DNA of 64,000 nucleotides from Methylococcaceae bacterium (GCA_049296695.1 JBAQSX010000061.1:1-64000); one strand, 5' to 3'; positions 14,364 through 60,324 are shown, counted from the stretch's first letter. The notes: generated by a model not told the origin, from the letters alone. Numbers and translations: made by a program.

Positions 14364-14563
14364 AGAATCAGGATTTACAGAATTTGGTGGTGCATCAAAA
14401 AAGTAGGCTAGTTAATATCAAACAATCGGAGTTCAAACCTAGGTTTGAACTCCAACTAAAATGGTGTTTTATTAAAATCTACTCTTTTGAGGCACTACCC
14501 AGAATTTCAAGATTCACAGGATTTATCCTGAAAATCCTATAATCTTGTAAATCCTGATTCAGA
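14364..14563. mobile_element. MITE family A copy 2 interrupted by nested MITE family B copy 2
   Basis: family-A left end tagaatcaggatttacagaattt (14364-) and right end aaatcctgattcaga (-14563), with family-B element (ggtggtgcatcaaaaaagtagg...ctactcttttgaggcactaccc) inserted internally. Confidence 0.7.
14387..14500. mobile_element. MITE family B copy 2 (nested inside family-A element)
   Basis: ~85% identical to 3254-3356 including TIRs and central gagttcaaacctaggtttgaactc palindrome. Confidence 0.7.
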
Positions 14564-14730: not shown

Positions 14731-15564
14731 TTAAATCGGTTTAACGTAAATACAACCTTCAAATTCTACTGTTTTAAAATTATTACGTTGTTGCCATAAA
14801 GATTCGGTCGCGCCTAATAATAATGCGCCTTCAGCGGTAAGCATAGTGACCATAGTCGATAATATTTGACTACGCACCGTTGGGGTAAAATAAATAGTCA
14901 CATTACGGCATAGAATTAAATCAAACTTGCCTAAATGCGAAAAATTGCGCGTTAAATTAATAGTATCAAAATGAACCCGCAAACGAATATTGGGACGTAA
15001 TACCCAAGTTTGCTGTTGAGTTTGCTCAAAATACTTATTACGCCGCGCTAAAGATAAACCACGATTAATTTCAAAAGTATTATAGGTTGCCAATCTTGCG
15101 CTTTGCAGAGCCGTTTGAGAAATATCCATAGCGCGTATTGAAAACTGTCGTGCCAATTCTGGCTTTTTTTTAGCCTGACATAATTCATCAATTAATATCG
15201 CTAAAGAATAAGCTTCTTGACCTGTAGAACAACCCGCAATCCATATTTTAATATCATAACCGCGTTCTATTTTTTTTAATAATTCGGGTAATATCTTTTT
15301 TTCTAAAGCATTCCAACAAGAAGAATCTCTAAACCATAAGGTTTCATTAGTGGTCATTAAATTAATGACCGTGGGTAATAATCTATCAGGCTCAACTTGC
15401 AAACGTAATAATAATTGACTAAAAGTAGTTAATCCTAAACTTTGAGCAAAATCACTTAAGCGTGTCTGCACTAAATAATCTTGATCTTTATGTAAATAAA
15501 TACCGCATTGATCGTGTAATAGTTTGCTGATTTGTTCAAATTCTAAAGCGGTAATTGTTTGCAT
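14731..15564 (-). CDS. cheR: Chemotaxis protein methyltransferase CheR
   Basis: 277 aa; SAM-dependent MTase motif (IWIAGCSTGQEAYSLA). Confidence 0.9.
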   Translation of the reverse strand: MQTITALEFEQISKLLHDQCGIYLHKDQDYLVQTRLSDFAQSLGLTTFSQLLLRLQVEPDRLLPTVINLMTTNETLWFRDSSCWNALEKKILPELLKKIERGYDIKIWIAGCSTGQEAYSLAILIDELCQAKKKPELARQFSIRAMDISQTALQSARLATYNTFEINRGLSLARRNKYFEQTQQQTWVLRPNIRLRVHFDTINLTRNFSHLGKFDLILCRNVTIYFTPTVRSQILSTMVTMLTAEGALLLGATESLWQQRNNFKTVEFEGCIYVKPI

Positions 15565-15565
15565 G

Positions 15566-16684
15566 TTATCTTGCCATAACCAATTGCATAATTTTTTGAC
15601 TGAGTCTATGTAAAGGCACTATTTCATCGGCTAAACCCGCCTCATAAACACTACCCGGCATTCCCCAAACAATCGAAGAATCTTGATCTTGAATTAAACA
15701 CATTGCGCCTTTTTGTTTTAATGAACGCACCCCTTCAGTACCATCGCGTCCCATCCCCGTCATAATAATGGCTAATACTTTGCCTTTAAAACTAGCCGCT
15801 ACCGATTGAAATAAAACATCGACCGAAGGACGACAATTATTAACAGGTGGCGCGTCAGTGATGGCTAAATAAAATCCGCCTTCAAGATGCGAACGTATAA
15901 TTAAATGTTTACCGCCTTGAGCAATATAAATATGACCATCATTTAATTTCTCACCGCCTTTGACTTCACTGACTGATAAGGGCGATATTTCATTAAGTTT
16001 TATTGCCAACGATTCAGTAAACATGGGCGGCATGTGTTGCACAATAATAACAGGGCAAGGTAACTGAGCAGTTAATTGTGGGATTAATTGATCTAAAGCT
16101 TTAGGGCCGCCTGTAGAAATACCAATAACAATTAAATCAAATTTTCTTTTCTGTGTTAATGCGCCAAGAGCAGGTGATGCAATGCTTTGTTTAATAGTAG
16201 TAGGCGGTGTTATTTTTTCAATACTGCTTTCGACTACAGGTATTAAAGGTCGTCTTTGACTAAGGCGCGCATATTTTTTAGTTTGTAATAAATCAATAAA
16301 AGGTTTTAAATACTGGACTAATTCTTCAATACCTTGTTCGGGCTGACTGACTTTAGGTTTAGCAATAAAATCTAACGCGCCTATTTGCAAAGAACGCAAG
16401 GTTTCTTTGGCATTATTCATATCAAAACTACTAATCATAATGGCTTCAATACTAGGATGCGCCTGTTTAATTTGTTGCAAGGTCGCCACGCCGTCCATAT
16501 CAGGCATGACCACATCTAATAAGACTAAATCAGGTTGCAATTCATCAATTTTTCTTAAAGCGATTTGTCCAGAAGCGGCGGTGGCAACGCACTGCGCGTC
16601 ACTGATTTTATCAATCACTGCCAGCATAATTTGCCTGTAAGTAATACTATCATCAACGATAATAATTTTTATTTTATCATTCAT
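15566..16684 (-). CDS. cheB: Protein-glutamate methylesterase CheB (REC + methylesterase)
   Basis: 372 aa; N-terminal REC (IIIVDDS...LLDVVMPDMDG) and C-terminal methylesterase (GISTGGP, GMGRDG). Confidence 0.9.
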   Translation of the reverse strand: MNDKIKIIIVDDSITYRQIMLAVIDKISDAQCVATAASGQIALRKIDELQPDLVLLDVVMPDMDGVATLQQIKQAHPSIEAIMISSFDMNNAKETLRSLQIGALDFIAKPKVSQPEQGIEELVQYLKPFIDLLQTKKYARLSQRRPLIPVVESSIEKITPPTTIKQSIASPALGALTQKRKFDLIVIGISTGGPKALDQLIPQLTAQLPCPVIIVQHMPPMFTESLAIKLNEISPLSVSEVKGGEKLNDGHIYIAQGGKHLIIRSHLEGGFYLAITDAPPVNNCRPSVDVLFQSVAASFKGKVLAIIMTGMGRDGTEGVRSLKQKGAMCLIQDQDSSIVWGMPGSVYEAGLADEIVPLHRLSQKIMQLVMAR

Positions 16685-16708
16685 TAAAATTCCAGTTTTT
16701 ATAAGTTT

Positions 16709-17188
16709 TTACAAACGTTTAATTAATTGTTCTATAGCAAGAATAATAATAAATTGATTATTCTGTTGAATAAGTCCTGAAATAAATTCTTTTTTTTCAT
16801 TGGCAACATTGGGCAAAGGTGGCAAGATGTCTTTATCGTCAACTGTCACCGTTTCACCCATGCTATCGACTAAAATCGCTAAAGGGTCTTTAATTTCTAT
16901 GGCATTATTAAAATTTTTACGATTGAGTTTATTAAGCCTACTCAATTCCGCTTTGGTTTTTAAAATAATTAAAACTCTATCTTCTAAGGCTTTAGTCGAT
17001 TTTTGAATTAAAAAAAACTGTGGGTCTAATACCGTTAAAATCTGACCGCGTAAATTCATAATGCCAATAAAATACTCTTCGGCTTCGGGTACGGGACTAA
17101 TTTCATTAATACGCCCAATTTCTTTAGAGAGTAATATATCAATGGCATAACGTTCTGAACCCAAATAAAAACTAATAAATTGTCGCAT
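16709..17188 (-). CDS. cheW: CheW-like coupling protein
   Basis: 159 aa CheW domain protein. Confidence 0.85.
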   Translation of the reverse strand: MRQFISFYLGSERYAIDILLSKEIGRINEISPVPEAEEYFIGIMNLRGQILTVLDPQFFLIQKSTKALEDRVLIILKTKAELSRLNKLNRKNFNNAIEIKDPLAILVDSMGETVTVDDKDILPPLPNVANEKKEFISGLIQQNNQFIIILAIEQLIKRL

Positions 17189-17197
17189 GATGTTCTC

Positions 17198-20100
17198 TTA
17201 TAAGTATTTAGCGAGGGTTTTTAAAACTAATTCTTTATCTAATTTAACTAGCCATTCATTAAAGCCTGCTTTTTTACCTTCTGAAATAGTATGTTCATCA
17301 TTTAAAGTGGTTAAGGCAATGACAGGCATGGCGTGCCAACGTGGATTAGCACGAATATTTTTGACCATTTCTCGACCATCCATTAGCGGCATTTCTATAT
17401 CACTTAATACTAAATCAAATTCTTGTTGAGTTAATAATTCTAAACCTTCACGACCATTAGTCGCAGTAGTGACTTGATAACCACCGCTTAATACACATTC
17501 TTTAATAACTTTCATAAAAAAGGGCGTATCTTCAACTAATAAGACTCGCTTATCTTTGGCTTTTTCAGTATTAATCACTAATTTATCAACACTTTCAGGT
17601 TCACCCGCAGTTAAAATGGCATGTAAATCTAACATTAAAGTAATTTTGCCATCCAATAACATAGAACCGAGCATCCCTACCGTATTCATTGAAGTATTTT
17701 CCAGTTTAATGACGGTATTTTTAGTATCAATAACTTTATTAATTAATAAGGCGACTGGGATATTAGTGCGTTTGGGAATAATAATAGTGGCAACGCTATT
17801 ATAATTATTGGGTTTTTGTACGGGCAAACAATTTTCTAAGCGCAATAAACGTACTTGTTCACCACGGTATTCAATATATTCATTACCCGTAATCATTTGA
17901 ATACGTTTAGTTTCTAAAGTATCAATACGCCGTATCCACGATAACGCTAAGGCAAAATGTTCTTCGGTATTATTATCAAAAATTAATAATGATTGCGGTT
18001 CTTGTTCTACAGTGCGTTGCATAATTGGGGTAGATTCTTGCTGTAATTCAGTATAAGCGAGTTGATTATTTTGAATATAACCCTGCACATCAATAATCAT
18101 GGCAATAGTACCATCACCTAAAATACTCGTCCCCGAAAAGTTTTTTAAATTTTTAAAATAATCAGGCATGGGTTTGACCACAATTTCTTCACTGCCTAAA
18201 ATTTTATCAACAATAACCGCAACCCGGTTTCTTTCGGCTTTAATAATTAAAATAAATAAAGGTTTATCTTCGGCATTAAGTAATTCGGCTGGATTATTTA
18301 AGGCAATATTGAGACTGCTGGCTAAAGAAATTAAAGGAATAAATTTACCGCGCAAACATAACATGCGCTGTCCTTGAACTATGCCTACTTTATTAGCATA
18401 ATCACTGGCTTCTAATAACACCATTTCTTCTAAATTACCTTGCGGAAAAGCAAAACGACAACGTTGTACGCTAACAATTAATGCTGAAATAATTGCCATA
18501 GTTAATGGCAGGGTCATGGTAATACTGGTCCATTTACCTAATTCAGAATTAATATCAATGGTACCGCCACAAGCTTCAATATTGGTTTTAACCACATCCA
18601 TACCAATACCACGACCCGAAACTGCCGATACGGTTTCAGCGGTAGAAAAACCTGCGGTAAAGACTAAATTCATTTTCTCTTTTGCCGACATTTTTTCTAA
18701 CATGTCTTGGCTAATAATACCTTTTTGCAAAGCTTTAGCGGCAATAAACTCAGGGTCGATACCCGCGCCATCATCACTGAATTGAATTACCACTTGTCCG
18801 CTTTCATGAAAGGCTTTTTGTACTAAAGTACCACTGGGTGGCTTGCCTTTTTTTAAACGTTCTTGTGGATTTTCAATACCGTGGTCGGCCATATTTCTAA
18901 TAATATGGGTTACAGGGTCAGTTAATGATTCAATAATAGTTTTATCTAATTCAACATCCGCACCTTCGGTCACTAATTCTAATTGTTTATTTAAATCTTT
19001 TTCTAATTGACGAATTAAACGCGGGAAACGATTAAAAATAACTCCCACAGGCTGCATTCTGGTACTCATAATTTCTTCTTGCATTTCACTGGTAATGCGA
19101 TTGAAATTATGCAGAATAACTTTTAAACCATTCGTTTGCGGCGTTAAAGGTTCACAGACTCTAAAAATTTGATTGCGCACTAAAACTAATTCACCCGCTA
19201 AGTCAATTAATTTATTAAGGCGTTTGACGTGAACTCGAATACTCTCTTCGGTTTCACTGTGATGATTAGATACTAGGGTATCTTGTTCAATAATGGGTTT
19301 TTCAACAATAATACTGCTTTCTTGAGGCGCAATAACTGTTTTTATAATAATAGGGGCGGTTTCTATAAAAGTATTATTAGGTTTAGAAGGCGGTTCTTGT
19401 ATTTCGGGCTGTTTGAAATTTAATAAACGTTGACATAAAGAAGCAATATCAATGGCAGTATCATCGGCATACTGTTGTATTAATTGTATTAATACATCAT
19501 GCGCTTCTAATAAGGTATCAATATAATGCCCCTCGAGAATTAAATTGGCACTTTTAGCAAGACTTAAAATATCTTCCATAATATGGGTTAAATCAGCTAT
19601 TTTTTGCAAACCTAAAAAACCAGCACCGCCTTTAATAGTATGTACATAACGAAATAATTCATTCAGTGTGGGTATATCAAAAGGATTCACTTCTAAAGCC
19701 AGTAAACAGGTTTCAATACGCGCAATACACTCTTTGGCTTCTTCAATAAAACTGGCTAGTAAATCATCTTGATAATACTCTTCAAGCTCTTCTTTTTCAG
19801 GGCTTGAAGGCGGGTTTATTTCAATAGTTATTTTAGGTTGATTTTGCATATTGTCTACTAAAACTAAATCGCTATTATCCTCTTTAGCTAAAGCATTACT
19901 GCTATTATCAATTAATGCGCTAAGTTGCTGGCAATAACTATCAATGGCGATATTATTGCTGTTTTCTGAATCATCAATCATGCGCACTAACCTGTCTTTA
20001 CTGGCTAATAAGGCATCAATGTGATTATTATCTAATAGTATTTTATTAGTCCGCGCTAAACTCAGCACATTTTCCATGCTATGCGCTAATAAACTGATAT

Positions 20101-20278
20101 TACTTAAACCAAAAAAACCCGCACCGCCTTTAATAGTATGGACACTACGAAATACTTCATTTAATAGCGCGGGATCGTTGGCTTTATGTTCTAAAGCAAG
20201 TAGATTGGCTTCAATTAGAGGTAAATGTTCGCGTGCTTCTTCAATAAAGGTGAGAATTAAATCATCACTTTGTTGCAC
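17198..20278 (-). CDS. Hybrid CheA-type histidine kinase with two HPt domains, HATPase, CheW-like domain and C-terminal receiver (WspE/ChpA-like)
   Basis: 1026 aa; two HTIKGGAGF phosphotransfer motifs (~aa 47 and ~213), kinase G-box (DDGAGID, GRGIGMDVV), C-terminal REC (LLVEDTPF...LSDIEMPLMDG). Confidence 0.9.
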   Translation of the reverse strand: MQQSDDLILTFIEEAREHLPLIEANLLALEHKANDPALLNEVFRSVHTIKGGAGFFGLSNISLLAHSMENVLSLARTNKILLDNNHIDALLASKDRLVRMIDDSENSNNIAIDSYCQQLSALIDNSSNALAKEDNSDLVLVDNMQNQPKITIEINPPSSPEKEELEEYYQDDLLASFIEEAKECIARIETCLLALEVNPFDIPTLNELFRYVHTIKGGAGFLGLQKIADLTHIMEDILSLAKSANLILEGHYIDTLLEAHDVLIQLIQQYADDTAIDIASLCQRLLNFKQPEIQEPPSKPNNTFIETAPIIIKTVIAPQESSIIVEKPIIEQDTLVSNHHSETEESIRVHVKRLNKLIDLAGELVLVRNQIFRVCEPLTPQTNGLKVILHNFNRITSEMQEEIMSTRMQPVGVIFNRFPRLIRQLEKDLNKQLELVTEGADVELDKTIIESLTDPVTHIIRNMADHGIENPQERLKKGKPPSGTLVQKAFHESGQVVIQFSDDGAGIDPEFIAAKALQKGIISQDMLEKMSAKEKMNLVFTAGFSTAETVSAVSGRGIGMDVVKTNIEACGGTIDINSELGKWTSITMTLPLTMAIISALIVSVQRCRFAFPQGNLEEMVLLEASDYANKVGIVQGQRMLCLRGKFIPLISLASSLNIALNNPAELLNAEDKPLFILIIKAERNRVAVIVDKILGSEEIVVKPMPDYFKNLKNFSGTSILGDGTIAMIIDVQGYIQNNQLAYTELQQESTPIMQRTVEQEPQSLLIFDNNTEEHFALALSWIRRIDTLETKRIQMITGNEYIEYRGEQVRLLRLENCLPVQKPNNYNSVATIIIPKRTNIPVALLINKVIDTKNTVIKLENTSMNTVGMLGSMLLDGKITLMLDLHAILTAGEPESVDKLVINTEKAKDKRVLLVEDTPFFMKVIKECVLSGGYQVTTATNGREGLELLTQQEFDLVLSDIEMPLMDGREMVKNIRANPRWHAMPVIALTTLNDEHTISEGKKAGFNEWLVKLDKELVLKTLAKYL

Positions 20279-20289
20279 TGGTCTGACTC

Positions 20290-22323
20290 CTAATGTACGC
20301 CTTTAGCATTTAGCACGATGCCGTATTGTTTATCCGTTTTTAAAATATGATCTAATAACCAATCTTTTAAAAATTCTTGAATATCAGCGGCAATTACCAT
20401 GACATCATCAGTTTTTAATTGGCGTTGATAACCTCTGACTTTATTAACAAAAGCTTCATGAATGGCTTTATGTTGGGTGAGTTCGGGCCACTGATGTTCT
20501 GCTAAAAGTTTTTCTTCATAGCCAAAATGAAATACGGTGTAATCAGCCAAGTAATTCACAATATCTTCCATCGTTTCACGGCTGATTTTGTGTTTTAAAC
20601 CATAAGCTAAACGATTAATTAATTCGACTAAAATACCGTGTTGTCGATCGATTTCTTTAATACCGACACTATAGGTGGCTAAATCCCAAGTAATTAAGGG
20701 TGTTTCAGCACTGGTATTAGTATTTTTTGCAGTATCAAAACGATTTACTTGCGGCATTAAGGAAGGATTATTGGATTCAGCACTGCGATTACTTAAATAA
20801 CCCACATTATCGTTATATTGATCTTTAAAATTAAAAGCATTAACGCATTCAACTAAACGTTGCGCTAAATTAGATAATTCACTGGCATTTTGATGGCTTA
20901 AAGATATTTCTTGGGTCATTTTGCCCAATGTTGAACGCACTGAATGAATATTATCATTGACCTTTTTAATACTGGTTGAAACTTCGGTACTTGAATGCGC
21001 GGCTTCTTTAACCCCTGTCGCGGCTTCTTCTAAAGCGCGTGCTGAGCTTCTGGAGGCTTGTGAGGCTTCAGCGGCTGAACGGGTAATTTCTTTTAAACCT
21101 TTAGTGGCTTCTTGTAGATTTAATACTGATTCTTTACTGGCACCCGCAATACCTTCAACTGCCAAAGTAATAGTATCTGCCGAGGAACTTTGTTGCTCGA
21201 CCGATAAATCAATAGCGCGATTAATTTCGGCAACTTGATTAATAACGGTATTCACCGCTTGAGTATGTTCTAGGGCTTGCGCGGCATAACTTTGTATTTG
21301 TTCTATTTGATCGGCAATTTCATTATTGGCCTCAGCGGTTTGTTGCGCTAAATCTTTAATTTCACCCGCGACTACTGCAAAACCTTTACCCGCATCCCCT
21401 GCACTTGCCGCTTCAATAGTGGCATTTAATGCCAGCATATTGGTTTGCCCTGCAATACTGTCAATTAATTTAACCACGCGTCCAATTTTTTTAGCGGTTT
21501 CACTTAATTGATTCATGGTCATTAAGGTTTTTTGCGCACTGGCAGTGGCATCACCTGAAATACGCATAGCATTTTGCGCATTTTTAGCAATTTCAGACAT
21601 CGATACTGACATTCTTTCCGCAGAATTAGCCACGGTATTAATATCTTGAGAAATTCTATCGAAACTATGATTAATACCTACCATATTAGTCGATGCCTCT
21701 TCGGCACTGGCGGCGACAGTATTGATATTGGTACTTAATTCATAAACTGACGCGCTCACGGTACTAACATTACCTGAGGCTTCTTCAATTGAAACTGCCA
21801 TATTATTGGCATTAAAAGCAATATGTTCTGAAGAGGTTGCAGTTAATGCTAATCGACATTCGACATCATTGGCACTATCGGCAATAGTCGCTGAGGATTG
21901 TTTTAATTTTTCAGAAGCATTAGTGACATTACTCGCACTTTGGGTGACACGTTTAATAACATTGGCAATTCTATCGACAAAAGCATTAAAAACATCTGCC
22001 ATCGCGCTGGTTTGTTCATGATTAGTGCTTAAACGTTTATTAAAATCACCCTGCGCAATATCTTCGGCGGTCAGTGTTAATTTATTAATCGCTTGATGAA
22101 TTTCAATAATATCGTGATTGATTTTATTAGCGATAAAATAAGCGGCAATTAAACCTATAATACTGACGGGAATTGTGGCTAGTAAAAACTCACTTAAGAC
22201 AAATTCTGCTGAGCGTAACAAGCCGCTGGCTAAAAAAGCGAATGTTAATAAAACAGAAGTAAAACTTAATAAGAGCAATAAAATTGTTTTTGGGTTGTGC
22301 GTGTGCATGTTTGTTCCTAACAT
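20290..22323 (-). CDS. Methyl-accepting chemotaxis protein with C-terminal hemerythrin-like domain (DcrH-like O2 sensor)
   Basis: 677 aa; N-terminal TMs, MCP signalling domain; C-terminus [25 protein letters not shown]...HF..EE..L...HKAIHEAF...DWLLDHI matches bacteriohemerythrin H-H-E-H-H-D ligand pattern. Confidence 0.85.
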
Positions 22324-23597
22324 TAGCCTAATATAACTTGATTTCTACCATTTTTCTTTGCTTGGTATAATAATTTGTCTGCTTTAATTAAAGCAGTTTC
22401 TAAATTTTCTTCGGTTGTAATACAAACGCCAACACTTACAGTGATTTTTAACAAGCTTTCATTGGGTAATCTAATACTATTGTCTGCAATTTTTTTACGC
22501 AATTCTCCAAATACTTTATTAGCATCTTCTGCATTCACGTTAGGTAATAAAAAACCGAATTCTTCACCACCAAAACGGGCGACTAAATCACCAGCTCGCA
22601 GGCTATTACTTAAAAGCTCCCCTATTTTTTTTAATACTAAATCCCCAATATCATGTCCATGCGTATCATTGACTTGTTTAAAGAAATCAATATCAATTAA
22701 TGCCACTGCCACAGGTTTGTGTGAACGTACGGCGCGCGCAAATAGTTTTTCACCCACATCAAAAAAATGCCGTCTATTATATAATCCTGTTAAAAAATCG
22801 CGGGTTGCTACAAAACGTAAATCTCGAATATATTCGAGTAATTCCATATTTTGATTAACGCGACAAAAGAACTCTTCTTCTAAAAAAGGTTTATTAATAA
22901 AATCACTGCCACCAATTTTTAAAAAGCGTGCTGATAATAAATTATTACCATAAGCAGACATACCAATAATGGCGAGCTCTTGTTTGCTGTAAATGTTTCT
23001 AGCTTTTTTAGTGAGTTCAAAACCATCCATCACAGGCATATTAAAATCAGTAATAATTAAACGAATATCTTTATTGCTATTTAATATTTCTAAGGCTTCT
23101 TCGCCATTCTCGGCTTCTAAGACAATAAAACGATAAATCGCTAATAAACGTTTAATATGCAGGCGTGCCGTTCTGGAATCATCGACTACTAAGGCTTTAA
23201 TGAGGGTGTTTCTATTGAGTTGTTTTAAAAGCGAAACAATATATTCAATACTGGCGGGACTTTCTTTTAAAACATAATCGACTATGCCTTTGGCGAGCAT
23301 TCGGTCTCTTAAGTCATCATCAAATTTTCCTGTGAATACAATGGAGGGAATGTTATAACTCAATACATAATCAATAACCTGCCCGTCGGGCGCGTCGGGT
23401 AGATTTAAATCTAATAAGCTGGCGAAAAATTCATATTTTCTTGACTCCAATAACTTTGTTAATTCCGCGTAACTTTCCACAGTGATTACCCTGAAATTGG
23501 GATCTGCTTCTATACTCGCTTTGAGAATACGCGTAAACATCTTGCTGTCTTCGACAACTAAAATATTTTTGGGTGGAGTCTCTATTTGTGCAGTCAT
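22323..23597 (-). CDS. Response-regulator diguanylate cyclase (REC-REC-GGDEF, WspR-like)
   Basis: 424 aa; two receiver domains followed by GGDEF domain with GGEEF active site and RxxD-like I-site context. Confidence 0.9.
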
Positions 23598-24162
23598 AGC
23601 TTAAAGTGTCTCATCGCAGGTATCTTTTTGCCTTTCCAATGCTGGAAATTTTTATTATTGTCTTTGTACATGAATAAAAATTATTCTTTTTATTACGAAG
23701 ATTATTATTAATAATCCATTAAATATTATTTTTATAAAGCTACTTTTATCTATTCAACACCGAAATAATTATAAACTTCTATTTGCCTTGTATGCTTTAT
23801 TATTTTTATTTATTTTTTTGCAATTTTAATTATTAATATTTTTTAAATTACAAAAATAATATGATAAAGACTATCATAAATAGCCAGTGTTAAAAATACT
23901 ATAATAAAGTAAATATAATTGATTGTTGGATAATTATAACCCCAAAGCTTTGTTAATTTGTCTCAAGTTACTCACCACACCGTTGCTTAGTTGATACGCT
24001 TGAAGTTTTTATTTACTTGGTTTCAATTTACCCTAAAAATAAATTAAAATCAATTTGTTACAAGCATTCGTCTAAAAATCCATTATCATGTCTTAAACGA
24101 TTTTGCAAGGACAATAAATAAAAGACTGTGTTACTATTTTATTTTTTGATAAGGATTTTAGT

Positions 24163-28346: not shown

Positions 28347-29243
28347 TTACTTTTTCAATAATCCCGAAATTTTATCAATTATAAAAAATAACAGTGATTT
28401 AATAACATCAACCGATTTTATCGTCATTGCCACACAAGCGGCACGTTTAGCTTTACCTTCTTCTGAATGCCAATGCGCACGACATCTTGCATAACACACA
28501 TCTAAGCCATCAATAAAAACGGGTTTATAAAGCCACATTTCTAAAATAGAAGTTACCCACATAAAGGCAAAAGAAACCCCCATGCCCATACCTGCAAAAA
28601 TCACCAACCACGCAAACATGGGATGAATTTTAGTGAGCCACCACGATAAAATATCAGCAATTAAAAATACATAAGGCATCCCAATGGCAATACATTTATA
28701 TTTATTAGGCGTGGTTTCAGCAAAACTGAAAATAATACCCACAAACATAAAAATAAAACTAATACCAAATAAATGAATATGCGAAACCCGCGTTAATGAG
28801 GCAAAAGTCGCGCCCTTATCTTGTTCAGTTAAGGCTTTTAATTGGGCAAAGTCTTTGAAATTAGGTAATGCCCCGCCAGCTGCTTCATTATGACAAGCCA
28901 CGCAACGATTTTCGACAATTTTATCAATGCCCTCATCTTTATAATTCTCAGCATCCGCGCCACTACGCACCCATTCAATTATTTTAAAACGCTCTGTTTC
29001 AGGGGCGTTATCTTTCATTGAACCATTGAGTTTAATTTCTAATACTGTGCCTGAACGGTTGCCATAATAACTATAAACAATATCTTCAACCGATAAACCG
29101 AATTTACCATCTGCCATGCCGTGGGTGAATAATATCTGCACTAGAGCAAATAAATAACCAATTGCCACCGTGGTCAAATAACCCGTGAACAATACCTTTA
29201 TGGGGGTATCGTGATCTTTTAGAGGAATGTATTTTTGCGTCAT
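28347..29243 (-). CDS. Membrane protein with a single CxxCH heme-c motif in a soluble loop (hypothetical membrane c-type cytochrome)
   Basis: 298 aa; CVACH motif, >=4 predicted TM helices. Confidence 0.55.
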   Translation of the reverse strand: MTQKYIPLKDHDTPIKVLFTGYLTTVAIGYLFALVQILFTHGMADGKFGLSVEDIVYSYYGNRSGTVLEIKLNGSMKDNAPETERFKIIEWVRSGADAENYKDEGIDKIVENRCVACHNEAAGGALPNFKDFAQLKALTEQDKGATFASLTRVSHIHLFGISFIFMFVGIIFSFAETTPNKYKCIAIGMPYVFLIADILSWWLTKIHPMFAWLVIFAGMGMGVSFAFMWVTSILEMWLYKPVFIDGLDVCYARCRAHWHSEEGKAKRAACVAMTIKSVDVIKSLLFFIIDKISGLLKK

Positions 29244-29359
29244 AAGTATTTTTAAGTAGATTAAAGTGAAGTCAAAGCAAATAGTTTTTAAAAACCATAG
29301 ACTTTATTATTTGTTCCTGTACTTGGTACAGTATAACTTATACTCTGTGAAAGCATTAT

Positions 29360-30331
29360 TTAGCTTTTGTTCTTTAACTTGTCATTATTAGTTAATAATA
29401 GCCCTTCTGCTTTACTGCCCAAATACACATAAATACCCAGTGACACCAATAACAGTGCGGCGGCGACAATAATCCATACCGCTTCAATTAATTGTTCACC
29501 ACCGCCATTTAATGCCGCTTTAAAAATCATTAATAAAGCTTCAATGGAGACGGCAATAATAATCACCGCAATAAAATGGGTAATAGTGCGCCGCGTGGAG
29601 CTGTGTCGCAAAATATCTTTATAAAGTAACACTTCTTCTTCTAAAGTAGTTTTACCTAAATCAAAAATCGCTAAAGCCAAAGTTAAATAGATCACCACGC
29701 CAAAGGGAATTTCGATGGCTTGTTTGGGGGTAATTAAAGACTGTACTACGGTAATACATTCTAAGCCTGCGGTATATAACAATACTAAAGCCACTGAAAA
29801 TAAGCCTAAGACAATTAAACTGTACATGGCTTTAAAATAAGGCTCAAAATAAACCCGCCGACTATCACCTGTTAAAAAGGATAAAGTAGCATTTAAATCC
29901 ACGTCTAAGACAATACAGCCTTTAATTGTGCCATCGTCATTGAGTATTTTCATACTGGTTGACATGCACAATTCGCGGCGCACACTTGATAAATACGGTT
30001 CGGTGACAATAACCCCCTCAGTTTTCATTGCCGCTAAAAAATAAGGTCGCTGACTTCTATCAGTGCCAATACCTATTTTAGGATGCTTTTTAAAATGACT
30101 ACCGGGGACATTTAAACAAATTTGTTTGCCTTCATTGTCAAGCAAATATAACAGGCTAATAAACGGATAATACTCGCATAAAGAAGTGAGTAAATCGGTT
30201 AATTCTTGTTGGTTTTGCTCAAACATTTTTTCATCGGCAAAACAACCTAAAATTGAAGATAATAAATGATGAATTGCGTCGCGATGCTCTTCATATTTTT
30301 CAATAACATTAATATGACTCATTTTGGACAT
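29360..30331 (-). CDS. Membrane protein with N-terminal Cache/PAS-like sensor fold and no output domain
   Basis: 323 aa; DRSQRPYF resembles the Cache-domain DRSxRPWY motif; C-terminal multi-TM region. Confidence 0.5.
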   Translation of the reverse strand: MSKMSHINVIEKYEEHRDAIHHLLSSILGCFADEKMFEQNQQELTDLLTSLCEYYPFISLLYLLDNEGKQICLNVPGSHFKKHPKIGIGTDRSQRPYFLAAMKTEGVIVTEPYLSSVRRELCMSTSMKILNDDGTIKGCIVLDVDLNATLSFLTGDSRRVYFEPYFKAMYSLIVLGLFSVALVLLYTAGLECITVVQSLITPKQAIEIPFGVVIYLTLALAIFDLGKTTLEEEVLLYKDILRHSSTRRTITHFIAVIIIAVSIEALLMIFKAALNGGGEQLIEAVWIIVAAALLLVSLGIYVYLGSKAEGLLLTNNDKLKNKS

Positions 30332-34339: not shown

Positions 34340-36589
34340 ATGCTCATGACTGAATTCACTGTAAAAACTGACCACCGCCTCGCGCCGATTGTATTATTTG
34401 CCTTAACCCTATTTACCAGCGCGTCATTGATGTTTGTGTTGCAACCGCTGTTTGGCAAATTATTACTGCCTTTATTAGGCGGCTCACCTGCGGTGTGGAA
34501 TACCTGCATGGTGTTTTATCAGAGCTTATTATTTTTGGGTTATTTATATGCGCACGGATTAGCCACGCGTTGCACAGCAAAACAACAAGTCTTTATTCAT
34601 GCCAGTATTATCGCATTGAGTTTTTTAGTATTACCCGTAGCACTGCCTGATAATAATCCACCACCCACAGAAACTAATCCCACTATTTGGGTATTTACTA
34701 CCTTATTATCCGCCATTGGCTTACCATTTTTTATTCTGTCAACCACCGCACCTTTAATGCAGAAATGGTTTGCCCAATTAAATCATAAACACAGTGATGA
34801 CCCGTATTTTTTATATGTCGCCAGCAATATTGGTAGTTTATTATCACTATTGAGTTATCCATTTTTATTAGAACCCAGTATCGGACTTGCCAGTCAACAA
34901 ACTGATTGGAGTATAGGTTACGCGCTATTATGTTTATTACTCAGCAGTTGCGCTTTAATGCTCTGGTTTAGCGCGAAAAACGCAGATAATACTCATGCCG
35001 ATATTCAAGAAAATCTACCACCATTAAGTATTAAAACACAAATGCGTTGGTTAGCTTTAGCCTTTGTTCCCTCAAGCTTATTATTAGGGCTAACTAATTT
35101 TATTAGCACCGATATAGCCTCAGTACCGTTATTGTGGATTATACCCTTAACGGTGTATTTATTGTCTTTTGTCATCGTATTTTCACATTGGAACGATAAA
35201 AGCCATCCGATTATCTTAAAACTACAACCGCTGTTTTTTGTCCCGTTTTTAATTTGCGCCTTTATTAATCCTGCGGATTTACAATATTGGGCATATTTAT
35301 TACTGCATATCATCGCCTTCTTTTTTGCGGTGATGGTCTGTCATGGGGAATTAGCAAAAGCGCGTCCACATACCGCTTATTTAACCAGATATTATTTAAT
35401 CATGTCGTTTGCAGGGATGCTAGGCGGCATGTTTAATACCTTTGTCGCACCGTTTATTTTTAAAGGTATTTATGAATATCCATTAATGATAGTCGCGGCG
35501 TTATTATTACGCCCTAGTATAACTGCTATTCATTATCGTGATAAAAAATTACTCTGGCAAATAGCCTTACCTGCATTAGTATTAAGCAGTGGCTGGTTAC
35601 TATTTACCGCACCACAAAATCCTGTTGATTATTTTGAAGCCTTTGCGATTGCCTTAATTTGTTTAAGCCTTATCGCTTATTGGACAAGAACTCAATTTAT
35701 TCATTATGCTTTATTTAATGGCGTTATTATTTTATTAGCTTTAGGCTTGCACAGTTTATCCGCTAAAACCTTATATCAAGAGCGCACTTTTTTTGGCGTG
35801 TTAAGTGTGCGGGAAAGCGTATTAATTAATGAACATAATCAACCTGAAACTTATTATGAATTATTTCACGGTACAACCAAACACGGTGCAGAACGTTTAA
35901 CTGCCGAAAATATTACCACGCCGCTGACTTATTACAGCAGACCCGGGCCTATGGGACAATTATTTAACGAATATAATAAACAAAATGATGCGTGGACTAT
36001 TGGCGCGGTGGGTTTAGGCGCGGGGGCTTTGGCGTGTTATGCAAAGCCTTCGCAAAACTGGACTTTTTATGAAATTGACCCTTTAGTGGTTAGCGTGGCA
36101 CAAAATACCCACTACTTTTCTTATTTAAAATTATGCGCCCCTAATGCCACTATGCGTATTGGTGATGCGCGTTTATCTTTAAATCAAGAACCTGAGGCTA
36201 AATTTGATTTATTAATGCTCGATGCTTTTAGTTCTGACGCTGTACCAACACATTTAATTACTCAAGAAGCCTTGCAACTTTATTTTAAAAAATTAAAGCC
36301 TAATGGTATTTTGGCATTTCATATTACTAATCGCCATTTAGCCTTAAAAAAGGTATTATCTATTCATGCTGAGCAGTTACATAAAACCGCTTTTATTGAA
36401 GAATTTAAACCCCAACAAGAATTACCTTTAGTGGTAGCCACTGATTGGGTAGTAATGGCAAATAATGCACAAACACTAGAGCCATTAAAGAATAGTAATT
36501 TAGGCGTGTGGGAAACCATGCCACTGTATTTTGATATAAAACCGTGGACGGATGATTTTACTAATATTGTGGATATTTGGAAAAAGTAA
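34340..36589 (+). CDS. Fused polytopic membrane (MFS-like) / spermidine-synthase-like methyltransferase-fold protein
   Basis: 749 aa; ~12 TM N-terminal half, C-terminal PABS-like domain (GAVGLGAGALACY ... FDLLMLDAFSSD). Confidence 0.8.
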   Translation: MLMTEFTVKTDHRLAPIVLFALTLFTSASLMFVLQPLFGKLLLPLLGGSPAVWNTCMVFYQSLLFLGYLYAHGLATRCTAKQQVFIHASIIALSFLVLPVALPDNNPPPTETNPTIWVFTTLLSAIGLPFFILSTTAPLMQKWFAQLNHKHSDDPYFLYVASNIGSLLSLLSYPFLLEPSIGLASQQTDWSIGYALLCLLLSSCALMLWFSAKNADNTHADIQENLPPLSIKTQMRWLALAFVPSSLLLGLTNFISTDIASVPLLWIIPLTVYLLSFVIVFSHWNDKSHPIILKLQPLFFVPFLICAFINPADLQYWAYLLLHIIAFFFAVMVCHGELAKARPHTAYLTRYYLIMSFAGMLGGMFNTFVAPFIFKGIYEYPLMIVAALLLRPSITAIHYRDKKLLWQIALPALVLSSGWLLFTAPQNPVDYFEAFAIALICLSLIAYWTRTQFIHYALFNGVIILLALGLHSLSAKTLYQERTFFGVLSVRESVLINEHNQPETYYELFHGTTKHGAERLTAENITTPLTYYSRPGPMGQLFNEYNKQNDAWTIGAVGLGAGALACYAKPSQNWTFYEIDPLVVSVAQNTHYFSYLKLCAPNATMRIGDARLSLNQEPEAKFDLLMLDAFSSDAVPTHLITQEALQLYFKKLKPNGILAFHITNRHLALKKVLSIHAEQLHKTAFIEEFKPQQELPLVVATDWVVMANNAQTLEPLKNSNLGVWETMPLYFDIKPWTDDFTNIVDIWKK

Positions 36590-41775: not shown

Positions 41776-42648
41776 TTACATGATATAAACAAATACAAAT
41801 AAGCCCAACCATACTACGTCAACAAAGTGCCAATACCAAGCGGCGGCTTCAAAAGCAAAATGATTTTCAGGAGTGAAATGACCTTTCGCGCTACGGAATA
41901 AGACCACGCTTAAAATAATTGCACCCACGCAAACGTGAAAGCCATGAAAGCCTGTCAACATAAAGAAAGTTGAACCGTAAATACCAGAGCCTAAAGTTAA
42001 GCCCATTTCGGTATACGCTTCATGATATTCCATTGCTTGAAAGGCAACGAAAAGAAAACCTAAAGCCACAGTCGCAATTAAACCTTTGATTAATTGGTCA
42101 CGGTTTTTAGCCAATAAGCCATGATGCGCCCAAGTACAAGTCACGCCACTGCTTAACAATAATAAAGTATTTAAAAATGGTAATCCCCACGCGCTCATGG
42201 ATTCAAATTCACCATCTTTAGTGGGTTGACCATTTAATAAATGCCCTGGACCATTGGTTGGCCAATGCGCTTCAAAAGCGGGCCATAATAATTCTTTAGT
42301 CGCACCTTCGCCCAACCAAGGCACTGATAAATTGCGGGTGTACCATAATGTGCCAAAGAATACCGCAAAGAACATCACTTCAGAAAAAATGAACCACATC
42401 ATGCCCATACGGTAGGAAATACCTACACCATGATTGTACATGCCTGATTCGCTTTCTTGCGCTTGCAGTGTGAACCAACCTGCTACCATGACAAGAAAAA
42501 TGGCTAAACCGACAATCATTAAAGTCGAACCAATGGCAGAACCATTTAAATAATTGGCAAAACCTGCCAAGGTAGTCACCAAACCAGCGGTAACTAAAAT
42601 CGGCCAAGTCGCTTTATGCGGAATATAATAAGCGTTGCTTGTTGACAT
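41776..42648 (-). CDS. coxC: Cytochrome c oxidase subunit III
   Basis: 290 aa 7-TM protein with Cox3 family signature. Confidence 0.9.
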   Translation of the reverse strand: MSTSNAYYIPHKATWPILVTAGLVTTLAGFANYLNGSAIGSTLMIVGLAIFLVMVAGWFTLQAQESESGMYNHGVGISYRMGMMWFIFSEVMFFAVFFGTLWYTRNLSVPWLGEGATKELLWPAFEAHWPTNGPGHLLNGQPTKDGEFESMSAWGLPFLNTLLLLSSGVTCTWAHHGLLAKNRDQLIKGLIATVALGFLFVAFQAMEYHEAYTEMGLTLGSGIYGSTFFMLTGFHGFHVCVGAIILSVVLFRSAKGHFTPENHFAFEAAAWYWHFVDVVWLGLFVFVYIM

Positions 42649-42660
42649 AAAATCCTCTCT

Positions 42661-43203
42661 TTATTTTACTGATTCATCAGTAATATCAAAAAATGTATAA
42701 GCTAATGTAATTGTTTTATGTTGCGCGGGTAAATCTGGATTAATTACAAAACGCATCGGCATGATTTTCACTTCATGTGCTTTAAAGGTTTGCTTTTCAA
42801 AACAAAAACATTGGGTTTTTTCAAAAAACTCACCTACGCCATTGGGTGTAAAACTCGCTGTAGCTCTAGCAATAATTGTTTTATCGCTTTTGTTTTCAGC
42901 ATAAAAATTAACAGTATGATACTCGCCCGAATGTACTGTTAATTGTTTAGTTTCAGCGCGAAATATCATCGGTGTTTTTTCATTAACCATGGTCATAAAT
43001 TCAACATTGATATTTCGATTTTTATCGATGTTATAACTGGTTTCTTTAACTTGTTTAACATCGTCTGGTTGATTAATACCTACCCATTTACACAGCGTGT
43101 AATAAAAAGGTACTAAAACATAACCAAACCCAAACATAGCAACCGCAACAAAAACCAAGATGCGCGCTAACTTAATATTTTTATTATTTAAGTTATTGCT
43201 CAT
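42661..43203 (-). CDS. ctaG: Cytochrome c oxidase assembly protein CtaG/Cox11
   Basis: 180 aa; N-terminal TM plus Cox11 domain with CFCF copper-binding motif (TQCFCFEKQ). Confidence 0.85.
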   Translation of the reverse strand: MSNNLNNKNIKLARILVFVAVAMFGFGYVLVPFYYTLCKWVGINQPDDVKQVKETSYNIDKNRNINVEFMTMVNEKTPMIFRAETKQLTVHSGEYHTVNFYAENKSDKTIIARATASFTPNGVGEFFEKTQCFCFEKQTFKAHEVKIMPMRFVINPDLPAQHKTITLAYTFFDITDESVK

Positions 43204-43299
43204 ACCGAAACTGCTTGAATAACAGCGGCGACATAAATAGCAATGGCAATTAAACCTAATACTAAACCTGTCAAAATATTTTTCTTTTTGGTATCCATT
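43201..43299 (-). CDS. Small (32 aa) single-TM ORF between coxA and ctaG, translationally coupled to ctaG (ATGA overlap)
   Basis: MDTKKKNILTGLVLGLIAIAIYVAAVIQAVSV; below ORF-track size cut-off; stop overlaps ctaG ATG. Confidence 0.4.
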
Positions 43300-43370
43300 A
43301 GCTCACCGCCTTTAGTTTTAAAAGTAGCCCGATTGCGAGCTACTTTAAAGTCAATATACAAACCAACTGT

Positions 43371-44999
43371 TTAGAAATGTTCAGTTGGAATGGTTTCTGG
43401 TGGTGTGGTAAAGCTGTGATAAGGCGGTGGAGAAGATAATGTCCATTCTAAGCTGTGTTTGCTTGCATCTTCCCAAACTTCATCAGTGACTTTTTCGCCA
43501 GTGCCACCTTTGATGGTGTCAATAACGATATACAGGAATAATAATTGGCTTAAACCAAAGATAAAGCCACCAATACTTGAAATCATGTTCCAATCAGCAA
43601 ACTGTACTGCATAGTCAGGAATACGACGTGGCATACCCGCTAAACCTAAGAAATGCTGTGGGAAGAACAAAATGTTCACCGAAATGGCTGACAACCAAAA
43701 ATGCAGTTGTCCGATTTTTTCGTTGTACATGTGACCTGTCCATTTAGGCAACCAAAAATAGCCAGCCGCCATCAAAATGAATACTGACGCAGGTACTAAG
43801 GTGTAATGGAAATGGGCAACGATGAAATAAGTATCGTGGTATTGGAAATCGGTTGGTGCGACTGACATCATCAAGCCTGTAAAACCACCCATGGTAAATA
43901 ACACCACGAAAGCGATAGAAAACAGCATGGGCGTTTCAAAAGTCATTGAGCCTTTCCACATGGTCGCCGTCCAGTTAAAGACTTTAACACCTGTAGGAAT
44001 CGCAATTAACATGGTGGCATACATAAAGTACAACTCACCCGCAATTGGCATACCCACAGTGAACATGTGATGCGCCCAGACGATAAATGATAAGAATGCA
44101 ATAGACGCTGTTGCATAAACCATTGAGCTGTAACCAAATAAGGCTTTACGCGCAAATACGGGAATAATAGTTGAAGCCACACCGAAAGTTGGCAAAATCA
44201 TGATGTACACTTCTGGGTGTCCGAAGAACCAGAAAATGTGTTGATACAATACAGGATCACCACCACCAGCGGCATTAAAGAAGCTAGTGCCGAAGAATTT
44301 ATCGGTAAGTAACATTGTTACCGCGCCAGCAAATACAGGCATTACTGCGATTAATAAGAAAGCAGTAATTAACCATGTCCAAACAAACAATGGCATTTTC
44401 ATGAGTGTCATTGCAGGTGCGCGCATGTTAAAAATGGTGGCGATAATGTTAATCGCACCCATAATTGACGATACACCCAATAAATGCACAGAAAATACCG
44501 CGAATGGCAGAGCTTTACCTGTTTGTAAAACTAAAGGTGGATACAAAGTCCAACCGCCAGCAGGCGCACCGCCTTCCATAAATAAAGTGCTAGCCAGCAA
44601 TAATACGCCAGCGACTAATAACCAAAAACTCATGTTATTCATGCGTGGCAAAGCCATATCAGGCGCGCCTATCATCATCGGAATTTGCCAGTTAGCAAGC
44701 CCTACGAAAGCGGGCATAACCGCACCAAATACCATCACTAAAGCGTGCATAGTGGTCATAGAATTAAAGAACTGCGGTTGCACAAACTGCATCCCCGGTT
44801 CAAATAATTCAGCGCGAATGACCATTGCCATTGCACCACCGACAAAAAACATAGCCAATGCAAACACTAAGTACATAGTACCAATGTCTTTATGATTGGT
44901 GGTGATTAACCAACGAATCGGTCCTTTGATAGGCCCGTGATCGTGGTCATCGTGATGATCGGTGTGATGATCATCATGTTCAGCTATAACAGCAGACAT
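43371..44999 (-). CDS. coxA: Cytochrome c oxidase subunit I
   Basis: 542 aa; 12 TM, heme/Cu ligating histidines, canonical CoxI. Confidence 0.95.
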   Translation of the reverse strand: MSAVIAEHDDHHTDHHDDHDHGPIKGPIRWLITTNHKDIGTMYLVFALAMFFVGGAMAMVIRAELFEPGMQFVQPQFFNSMTTMHALVMVFGAVMPAFVGLANWQIPMMIGAPDMALPRMNNMSFWLLVAGVLLLASTLFMEGGAPAGGWTLYPPLVLQTGKALPFAVFSVHLLGVSSIMGAINIIATIFNMRAPAMTLMKMPLFVWTWLITAFLLIAVMPVFAGAVTMLLTDKFFGTSFFNAAGGGDPVLYQHIFWFFGHPEVYIMILPTFGVASTIIPVFARKALFGYSSMVYATASIAFLSFIVWAHHMFTVGMPIAGELYFMYATMLIAIPTGVKVFNWTATMWKGSMTFETPMLFSIAFVVLFTMGGFTGLMMSVAPTDFQYHDTYFIVAHFHYTLVPASVFILMAAGYFWLPKWTGHMYNEKIGQLHFWLSAISVNILFFPQHFLGLAGMPRRIPDYAVQFADWNMISSIGGFIFGLSQLLFLYIVIDTIKGGTGEKVTDEVWEDASKHSLEWTLSSPPPYHSFTTPPETIPTEHF

Positions 45000-45055
45000 A
45001 CTTTAATACCTCAAGAAATTATTAATAAAGGGTGAATAGATGAACCTTGGCAGAT

Positions 45056-46838: not shown

Positions 46839-47237
46839 TTAACTATTTAATGCTTCAGCATAAGCCATATCAAATGTTGGGATATGACTATCCAACCAAC
46901 CTTTTACTAATTGACCCACTTCTTCAGTGACTTCGGCTTCACCTGCATGGAATTTACTTTGCAAATCAGCGCAAATTCCAACTAATGCCACATGTTCTGC
47001 TTTGTGTCTATCATAACCCGCAAAATTTTTGGCAATCATTTCTTTTTCTTCATGCGCGAAATGATCAACTACATAAGCGATTAAATCATCTAATTGCACG
47101 CCTATTGCTGAACGTTCCGCACCACCTGTTGCTAAATCATACAATGTATTCAACTTATCGAATAAAATTTTATGCTCATCATCAGCAAATGCTACATTAG
47201 TGCCATATTGGCTTGCTGTCCAAGTGATTAGTGCCAT
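46839..47237 (-). CDS. Bacteriohemerythrin
   Basis: 132 aa; W..Y.VG...DDEHK.LF...N.L ... HF..EE ... HK.EH ... D..I iron-ligand pattern of hemerythrin. Confidence 0.9.
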   Translation of the reverse strand: MALITWTASQYGTNVAFADDEHKILFDKLNTLYDLATGGAERSAIGVQLDDLIAYVVDHFAHEEKEMIAKNFAGYDRHKAEHVALVGICADLQSKFHAGEAEVTEEVGQLVKGWLDSHIPTFDMAYAEALNS

Positions 47238-50696: not shown

Positions 50697-50702
50697 AAAC
50701 CC

Positions 50703-58000: not shown

Positions 58001-58251
58001 TCGGGGCGTTCTTTGGCAATAATCTTTTCTACGGTTTGCCAATCAATTGGCTCAATATAAATCGCGTCCGCCATGTCGGGGTCGGTCATAATAGTGGCGG
58101 GATTAGAATTAACGAGGATGACTCGATAACCTTCTTCGCGTAGGGCTTTACAGGCTTGTGTGCCTGAATAATCAAATTCACACGCTTGCCCGATAACAAT
58201 AGGGCCTGCACCTAATAATAAAATGGATTTTATGTCTGTTCTTTTTGGCAT
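55033..58251 (-). CDS. carB: Carbamoyl-phosphate synthase large subunit
   Basis: 1072 aa; duplicated ATP-grasp domains, canonical CarB. Confidence 0.97.
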
Positions 58252-60322: not shown

Positions 60323-60324
60323 TA

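Follow-up and report, generated by a model that had tools for sequence, protein, structure and literature searches.

A six-gene chemosensory operon from a Methylococcaceae bacterium with a hemerythrin receptor, an F5-like CheA, and a diguanylate cyclase as its putative output

Gene content and domain integrity of the operon

A stretch of 64,000 nucleotides (nt) from a Methylococcaceae bacterium (GCA_049296695.1 JBAQSX010000061.1:1-64000), called the window here, contains six contiguous open reading frames (ORFs) on its minus strand at 14731-23597. All coordinates are counted from the first letter of the window. In the order of transcription, the genes encode a cyclase with two receiver domains (REC-REC-GGDEF), a methyl-accepting chemotaxis protein (MCP) with a C-terminal hemerythrin domain, a CheA fused to a receiver domain (CheA-REC), CheW, CheB, and CheR (Table 1). 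These products probably constitute a complete and self-contained chemosensory pathway, in which a cytoplasmic di-iron hemerythrin is the input and synthesis of cyclic di-GMP (c-di-GMP) is the output; such a pathway would be analogous to Wsp, with an F5-like core. The genes are tightly packed, with successive intergenic gaps of -1, 11, 9, 24, and 1 nt, and the cyclase stop codon overlaps the MCP start codon in the sequence TAATG. An alternative MCP start is Met6 (window 22308), which lies 15 nt 3' of the annotated start at 22323; homologues align only from Met6, and its use would leave a 14-nt gap between the cyclase and the receptor, as in the orthologous locus L001. A Methylococcaceae metagenome-assembled genome (MAG) encodes proteins that match CheA (MFZ2725603.1) and the cyclase (MFZ2725605.1) with 100% identity.

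Table 1. Coordinates of the operon, its domains, and its flanking elements (aa, amino acids)
Feature	Position	Strand	Evidence
REC-REC-GGDEF cyclase, 424 aa	22323-23597	-	Pfam GGDEF (E 5e-45), two Response_reg stretches; NCBIfam
Cyclase REC1	23220-23570	-	Pfam/NCBIfam
Cyclase REC2	22848-23201	-	Pfam/NCBIfam
Cyclase GGDEF	22338-22808	-	Pfam/NCBIfam
MCP with C-terminal hemerythrin, 677 aa	20290-22323	-	Pfam MCPsignal (E 8e-35), Hemerythrin (E 3e-14); NCBIfam NF033749
MCP transmembrane hairpin and HAMP	21949-22323	-	
MCP signalling hairpin	20839-21948	-	
MCP linker	20698-20838	-	
MCP bacteriohemerythrin	20293-20697	-	
Hybrid CheA, 1026 aa	17198-20278	-	Pfam
CheA Hpt1 (H47)	19991-20260	-	Pfam
CheA Hpt2 (H213)	19496-19765	-	Pfam
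CheA dimerisation and kinase	18500-19246	-	
CheA CheW-like 1	18071-18484	-	
CheA CheW-like 2	17606-17965	-	
CheA REC (D960)	17240-17545	-	
CheW coupling protein, 159 aa	16709-17188	-	Pfam CheW (88.8 bits)
CheB methylesterase with receiver, 372 aa	15566-16684	-	NCBIfam CheB subfamily (365 bits, cut-off 293)
CheR methyltransferase, 277 aa, without TPR extension	14731-15564	-	Pfam CheR_N and CheR
AT-rich divergent intergenic region, 565 bp, upstream of the operon, shared with SDF symporter gene	23598-24162	.	Sequence
Terminator-like hairpin, 16 pairs then T-rich tail, between cheR and convergent surE	14423-14458	-	Consensus scan only

The cyclase carries a GGEEF motif at residues 343-347 and an RxxD I-site at 334-337. 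Both receivers have complete phospho-acceptor pockets, composed of E16/D17/D63/T89/K111 in REC1 and D139/D140/D184/S214/K236 in REC2. These pockets, the GGEEF motif, and the I-site are conserved in 118 cyclase homologues. The top matches in the PDB are 3LUF (REC-REC, 174 bits) and PleD (162 bits), and the structures of WspR score 106-114 bits. The identity to Cupriavidus WspR is 30%. The best NCBIfam match is CbrR with 291 bits (equivalog cut-off 600), and PleD gives 214 bits (cut-off 474), so that neither cut-off is reached.

The receptor matches the NCBIfam bacteriohemerythrin model NF033749 with 123 bits against a cut-off of 84, and DcrH-Hr is the best PDB match of its hemerythrin domain (86 bits). 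The ligand set H-HxxxE-HxxxH-HxxxxD follows the MCP signalling domain, and its residues H562, H599, E603, H618, H622, H659, and D664 align with H23, H59, E63, H78, H82, H118, and D123 of DcrH. In 39 homologues, with identities as low as 29%, none of the seven ligands varies, nor do the pocket residues F600, W655, and I660. The layout of the receptor was derived from hydropathy and an AlphaFold2 (AF2) model (pLDDT 79.7), in which helices span residues 11-35, 43-90, 103-307, and 312-495 and are followed by a four-helix bundle at 556-673. Hydropathy and the AF2 model place membrane helices at 11-35 and 43-68, separated by a loop of about 7 residues and followed by HAMP, which leaves no periplasmic domain. 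Because this membrane hairpin has almost no periplasmic loop, the hemerythrin would be the only sensor module of the receptor and would lie in the cytoplasm. In the signalling hairpin, the N-arm ends at residue 307, the tip is formed by 308-311, and the C-arm covers 312-495 (184 residues). A disordered linker of about 50 residues runs from 496 to approximately 547. The C-arm corresponds to about 26 heptads, which gives about 52 heptads for the hairpin, or 52-56 depending on the reference; this count was made here from the AF2 model and the alignment, and the class label is not taken from MiST models.

CheA contains two Hpt domains and two CheW-like domains. The second Hpt (60 bits) and the second CheW-like domain (43 bits) pass the Pfam cut-offs when they are scanned alone, and no P2 or CheY-binding domain was matched by Pfam in this protein. 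H47 of Hpt1 and D960 of the receiver are invariant in 13 CheA homologues. Two orthologues, that of Methylomagnum among them, have Arg or Gln in place of H213 of Hpt2, and the second Hpt is therefore probably dispensable. Among the aligned CheAs, Hpt2 occurs only in those of Methylococcales, and the region is unrelated in sequence in the relatives outside this order. CheB has the phospho-acceptor motif DVVMPD and all of the motifs GISTGG, VQHMP, and GRDG that bear the catalytic Ser, His, and Asp.

A sequence-only reading of this DNA had proposed the same six genes, in the same order and at exactly the same coordinates, and ORF calls together with Pfam and NCBIfam domain annotation bear this out. 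Its GGEEF cyclase and its DcrH-like C-terminal hemerythrin with intact iron ligands also held, as seven out of seven ligands align. Its CheA-REC hybrid was confirmed, although the second Hpt and the second CheW-like domain had been missed.

Relatives of the operon and affinities of its core

The identical six-gene order is present at four other loci, which belong to the cultured methanotroph Methylomagnum ishizawai (L004), a Methylomonas MAG (L016), GCA_041643215.1 (L001), and a Logan assembly (L002). The cyclase-to-receptor gaps at these loci are 9-21 nt. The six proteins diverge in parallel, with 57-81% identity to their window counterparts, and the flanking genes are unrelated between loci. 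No CheY is encoded in any of the five Methylococcales operons.

Species-representative genomes were scanned with a CheA alignment, which yielded 80 loci, and the genes around each CheA were mapped. Alphaproteobacterial loci have the classic F5 order cheA-cheW-cheY-cheB-cheR. In Desulfobacterales, Planctomycetota, Melioribacteraceae, Delongbacteria, and Anammoxibacter, a REC-PP2C (SpoIIE) protein is encoded upstream of a double-CheW CheA, together with genes for STAS proteins and RsbW-like kinases (L026, L030, L031, L032, L035, L037, L038, L040, and L051). These loci look like chemosensory pathways that feed a partner-switching module. Since REC-PP2C and STAS occupy the position of the cyclase in these sister lineages, the double-CheW lineage appears to use enzyme-type response regulators repeatedly. 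A hemerythrin-MCP adjoins a related CheA in Parabeggiatoa and at three other loci (L021, L027, and L033). Among the mapped loci, the hemerythrin-MCP and the cyclase are combined only in Methylococcales.

In the CheA tree, the Methylococcales clade has 100% bootstrap support, and Parabeggiatoa (100%) and SAR324 (98%) attach to it. Together they lie within a clade with the PP2C-linked systems that is supported at 84%. The pairing of the cyclase with a double-CheW CheA also recurs in a Thermodesulfobacteriota MAG (GCA_042563835.1, L097 10001-19654), in which a REC-REC-GGDEF gene overlaps the start of a gene for a 1112-aa double-CheW CheA. Downstream follow a dCache_3 receptor, CheW, CheB, and CheR, so that a dCache receptor stands in place of a hemerythrin receptor. 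The L097 cyclase is 51% identical to that of the window, and its che proteins are only 35-37% identical.

The receptors encoded beside double-CheW CheAs share a 16-residue tip motif that differs from that of WspA. An alignment of 38 receptors from the fetched loci showed that arm lengths change by whole heptads, mostly in steps of 14 residues. The window receptor and its orthologues have arms of 184/186 residues, and so do the hemerythrin-MCPs of SAR324 and Parabeggiatoa. The arms measure 170/172 residues in two Thermodesulfobacteriota hemerythrin-MCPs, 156/158 in receptors of PP2C-linked systems, 142/144 in the L097 receptor, and 135/137 in WspA. In SAR324 (GCA_015232315.1), the hemerythrin-MCP whose arm length and tip motif match the window receptor is a lone gene next to fliM (L003). 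Another contig of the same genome carries a STAS-CheA-CheW-CheB-CheR cluster without a receptor gene (L006), and the two may be partners.

The class definitions used for the core were taken from Berry et al. 2023 (PMC10782961) alone. According to this survey, CheW is duplicated in 99% of F5 CheAs, and nearly every CheA that carries two CheW domains is F5; the classes with CheW duplication are F5, F1, and F10, and the class of alternative cellular functions (ACF), to which Wsp belongs, is not among them. The operons on the chromids of Cupriavidus metallidurans (L009) and Ralstonia (L010) served as Wsp references. They were fetched with a WspR bait, which matched at 72% identity, and only the retrieved database sequences were used. 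The supplement of Berry et al. 2023 gives Cupriavidus WspE (RMET_RS20555, 768 aa) the label cheaACF, and the four CheAs from Methylococcales that its table includes under ACF are 711-752 aa long and have only one CheW domain. In the window CheA, there are two CheW stretches and a C-terminal REC without P2, which is the F5 architecture.

The window CheA aligns with Azospirillum CheA1 (F5) at 34% identity and about 400 bits over residues 345-1026, through the second CheW and the receiver. Its identity to WspE is 27% (182-233 bits), and WspE is the most distant CheA compared. CheB scores 206-221 bits against Azospirillum Che1 and 129-145 bits against WspF, and its scores against F5 references are level with those against F7-type references. 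CheR scores 150 bits against Azospirillum Che1 and at most 81 bits against WspC. For CheB, CheR, and the receptor, the lowest scores among the references belong to WspF, WspC, and WspA, respectively, and Azospirillum CheA1 and CheR1 give the best scores in the limited reference set that was compared. In a 20-taxon neighbour-joining (NJ) tree of the dimerisation-kinase-CheW core, the window clade groups with Azospirillum CheA1 at 86% bootstrap, and WspE is outermost. The sequence-only reading had expected this CheA to fall in the ACF/Wsp class and had named a grouping with flagellar F-class systems as what would refute this. The Wsp class does not hold, as the CheA has a duplicated CheW, aligns end to end with Azospirillum CheA1, and groups in NJ trees with CheA1 and not with WspE, so that the refuting outcome is the one obtained. 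Its Wsp logic survives as a functional analogy, a chemosensory core that feeds a REC-GGDEF protein, and not as class membership. The core thus appears to be F5-like and to belong to a double-CheW, REC-fused CheA lineage, as judged by domain make-up, scores, and NJ trees.

Proposed pathway, competing explanations, and other genes of the window

The proposed pathway stands on the gene content of the operon, the integrity of its domains, its conservation as a block, and the affinities of its parts. The steps set out here are proposed from established knowledge of chemosensory arrays, of PleD and WspR activation, and of DcrH, and this applies to the transfer of phosphate to the cyclase, to the role of O2 as ligand, to the direction of the response, and to the downstream phenotype. 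The receptor would sit in the inner membrane through its two-helix hairpin, with the hemerythrin tethered by the flexible linker of about 50 residues. Binding of O2 to the di-iron site, or oxidation of this site, would alter the control that the receptor exerts on the CheA kinase, which would be held by CheW and by the two CheW-like domains of CheA itself. From His47 of Hpt1, the phosphate could pass to three kinds of receiver, namely REC-REC-GGDEF, CheB, and the REC of CheA, the last of which is probably a phosphate sink. The phosphorylated cyclase would produce c-di-GMP through its GGEEF domain, and the RxxD I-site would provide product inhibition. Methylation by CheR and CheB would adapt the receptor, so that c-di-GMP would track changes in O2 or redox and not their absolute level. 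The unusually long receptor should build its own array, insulated from taxis receptors. In the double-CheW, REC-fused lineage, CheY would have been replaced by an enzyme-type response regulator.

On a wider scale, it is tentatively suggested that the double-CheW lineage filed under F5 holds a large and unremarked radiation. In this lineage, CheY would have been replaced by REC-PP2C (Desulfobacterales, Planctomycetota, and others) or by REC-REC-GGDEF (Methylococcales and the Thermodesulfobacteriota MAG). The methanotrophs would thereby have gained an adapting, hemerythrin-gated pathway from O2 to c-di-GMP, a third evolutionary route beside ACF/Wsp and type IV pilus (Tfp)/Chp.

Several observations weigh against the proposed pathway or its placement. 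Phosphotransfer specificity is not readable from sequence, and with a view confined to 64 kb, the main target could still be a CheY encoded far away. Close homologues of the cyclase in Psychromonas and Magnetococcales are orphans and have no che gene in their surroundings, which indicates that the cyclase family is not intrinsically chemosensory. No receptor segment matches the strict methylation-site consensus; EE/QQ pairs in an Ala/Ser-rich context are present at positions 181, 208, 377, and 432. In reviews of hemerythrin sensors and of aerotaxis, DcrH appears solely as a taxis receptor, and its signalling mechanism is given as unknown. The ACF references are two WspE orthologues only. In a 57-taxon NJ tree, WspE again falls outside, and the double-CheW clade joins the alphaproteobacterial F5 CheAs with only 38% bootstrap.

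O2 as the signal is suggested by the precedent of DcrH. The same pathway could instead report a signal other than O2, such as redox through diferrous/diferric cycling, NO, H2O2, or iron availability, which is possible but rather unlikely. Characterised bacterial hemerythrin sensors answer oxidation state as much as O2, and a 2022 census of c-di-GMP sensing and a review list VcBhr-DGC and Ferrovum Bhr-HD-GYP as O2/redox sensors. A separate single-domain bacteriohemerythrin (Bhr) beside the cytochrome oxidase genes of the window could also serve O2 handling. In contrast, the ligands and the invariant pocket residues of the receptor match the O2-binding DcrH-Hr, and a methanotroph at an oxic-anoxic interface would have an obvious use for O2 sensing.

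The main rival to the pathway itself is an F5-type aerotaxis system, which would steer the flagellar motor through a CheY encoded elsewhere, while the cyclase would act as a phosphate sink or a side branch or would only share the transcript. Characterised F5 systems, such as Azospirillum and Rhodospirillum centenum Che1, control swimming (Berry et al. 2023, PMC10782961), their alphaproteobacterial relatives carry cheY between cheW and cheB, and DcrH is regarded in a review as an aerotaxis receptor. The closely similar hemerythrin-MCP of SAR324 adjoins fliM, and the hemerythrin-MCP operon L027 ends with a gene for a 126-aa REC protein. This explanation is nevertheless unlikely, as the cyclase is always the first gene, at a gap of 21 nt or less, in the five Methylococcales operons, all of which lack CheY. 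The recurrence of the cyclase-CheA pairing in another phylum (L097) and the enzyme-type regulators of the sister lineages also speak against it. The arms of the receptor exceed those of the other receptors compared by 28-63 residues, which points to a separate array, and the cyclase has two fully conserved receiver pockets, as a real phosphorylation target should.

It is highly improbable that the operon is a true Wsp/ACF member in which WspR, A, E, B, F, and C have orthologues arranged in another order, as the sequence-only reading proposed, since the shared logic without CheY and the multiple Hpt domains, found mostly in ACF and Tfp CheAs (Berry et al. 2023, PMC10782961), are outweighed by the two-CheW architecture surveyed in F5, F1, and F10 only, the single CheW of the Methylococcales CheAs listed under ACF, the position of WspE outside in both NJ trees, the lowest scores of WspF, WspC, and WspA, the single cheW gene, the CheR without TPR, the receptor without a periplasmic domain, and a two-receiver cyclase closer to 3LUF and PleD than to WspR. 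As the domain make-up of CheA, the grouping of the core, and the scores of CheB, CheR, the receptor, and the cyclase are all nearer to non-Wsp proteins, the Wsp/ACF assignment is largely refuted, and these sequence comparisons lead to the conclusion that the system lies outside the Wsp family.

The rest of the window contains no other REC-encoding ORF or che gene, and the absence of CheY that the sequence-only reading had reported is therefore upheld within these 64 kb. The operon is flanked by housekeeping genes, namely the SDF symporter gene, surE, smr, and the Na+-NQR operon. The AT-rich intergenic region upstream of the cyclase is the presumed promoter region, and a promoter scan of it gave only weak sigma-70-like matches that were not above the level of shuffled sequence. 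The hairpin downstream of cheR is a candidate for the end of the operon. A search of the window against Rfam returned no matches.

A single-domain bacteriohemerythrin of 132 aa is encoded at 46839-47237 (-), directly upstream of genes for an aa3-type cytochrome c oxidase (41776-46624). Its neighbourhood matches the cox-linked setting of bhr-00 of Methylomonas, a hypoxia-induced, methanotroph-specific gene described in a 2025 study of bhr genes. Between carB (55033-58251) and carA (62385-63509), in a stretch whose GC content is 0.28-0.31, a PARIS-type anti-phage pair is inserted at 59396-61683 (-); its members are an AriB/DUF4435 protein (59396-60322) and an AriA-like ATPase (60325-61683). At 48174-52409 (+), two adjacent ORFs of 840 and 568 aa have low GC and no Pfam family, and the 840-aa ORF has a candidate PADLOC match to PDC-M26A (87 bits). 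A 749-aa ORF at 34340-36589 (+) is without a Pfam match and gives no more than a weak PADLOC match to mad2. The region 28347-30331 (-) encodes a 323-aa protein with a partial dCache_1 only, followed by a 298-aa ORF without a family, and could represent a split or degenerate sensor gene.

Comparison with known systems

The 2022 census places the chemosensory systems known to act on c-di-GMP in the ACF or Tfp classes. Its list of hemerythrin-based c-di-GMP enzymes consists of the one-component proteins VcBhr-DGC and Bhr-HD-GYP, and it describes the stimulus of Wsp as still unknown. The 2025 study of ten bhr genes in Methylomonas denitrificans reported a single-domain bhr near che genes and no hemerythrin-MCP or cyclase module. 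Full-text literature searches found no description of the combination of a hemerythrin-MCP, an F5-like CheA, and a cyclase. If the proposed pathway is true, an F5-type core would be a third origin of chemosensory c-di-GMP control, and class labels would not predict output. The system would offer a defined input for a pathway from a chemosensory array to c-di-GMP. Its hemerythrin centre is open to spectroscopy, and one of the methanotrophs that carry the module, Methylomagnum ishizawai, is in culture. For methanotrophs at the boundary between oxic and anoxic zones, it also suggests a way in which the decision to be motile or sessile could be tied to changes in O2. Taken singly, the parts are ordinary, and the interest of the system would rise if the rewiring of the output across the double-CheW lineage were confirmed.

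The Wsp system of Pseudomonas (WspABCDEFR, ACF) likewise uses an MCP, CheA-REC, CheW, CheB, and CheR to control a response-regulator cyclase with GGEEF and an I-site. Both systems lack CheY and CheZ, and c-di-GMP is the presumed output. The parts differ, however. WspE has Hpt, dimerisation, and kinase domains, one CheW, and a REC in 768 aa, whereas the 1026-aa window CheA has both Hpt and CheW in duplicate. Wsp has two CheW-like genes, wspB and wspD (L009 5142-5615 and 6894-7646), and the window operon has one cheW. WspR is a single REC-stalk-GGDEF protein, in contrast to REC-REC-GGDEF. WspA has a periplasmic four-helix bundle, whereas the window receptor has a loop of about 7 residues, a hemerythrin, and arms that are 49 residues (about 7 heptads) longer. 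PMC3447774 describes a C-terminal TPR extension of CheR as typical of ACF clusters, and the window CheR, with CheR_N and CheR only, lacks it. The gene orders also differ, and the input of Wsp is a surface or membrane signal, whereas that of the window system would be a cytoplasmic metal-centre sensor.

The F5 systems, represented by Che1 of Azospirillum and of R. centenum, have a CheA with Hpt, dimerisation, kinase, two CheW domains, and REC without P2, as in the window. The order cheA-cheW-...-cheB-cheR is also common to both, but F5 operons have a single-domain cheY between cheW and cheB, which is present at the alphaproteobacterial loci and absent from the window and its four orthologous loci. 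The window operon differs further in its upstream cyclase, its dedicated receptor, its extra Hpt, and an identity of only about 34%. Its CheA falls in a sub-lineage separate from the F5 references, together with SAR324, Parabeggiatoa, and the REC-PP2C-linked systems.

The cyclase shares the domain order REC-REC-GGDEF with regulators of the PleD, CbrR, and 3LUF type. The second receiver of PleD is degenerate, with Asn at the acceptor position, whereas both phospho-acceptor pockets of the window cyclase are full. The receptor resembles DcrH of Desulfovibrio vulgaris, which likewise carries a C-terminal hemerythrin behind the MCP signalling domain, with the seven ligands and the pocket residues conserved. 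DcrH, which is thought to drive negative aerotaxis, has a periplasmic domain, whereas the window receptor has a bare membrane hairpin and is encoded within a che operon headed by a cyclase. In VcBhr-DGC of Vibrio cholerae, a hemerythrin is fused to GGDEF and its di-iron centre controls c-di-GMP synthesis, as is proposed for the window system. VcBhr-DGC is a one-component protein, whereas in the window system the sensor and the cyclase are separate and would be joined by a kinase cascade with methylation adaptation.

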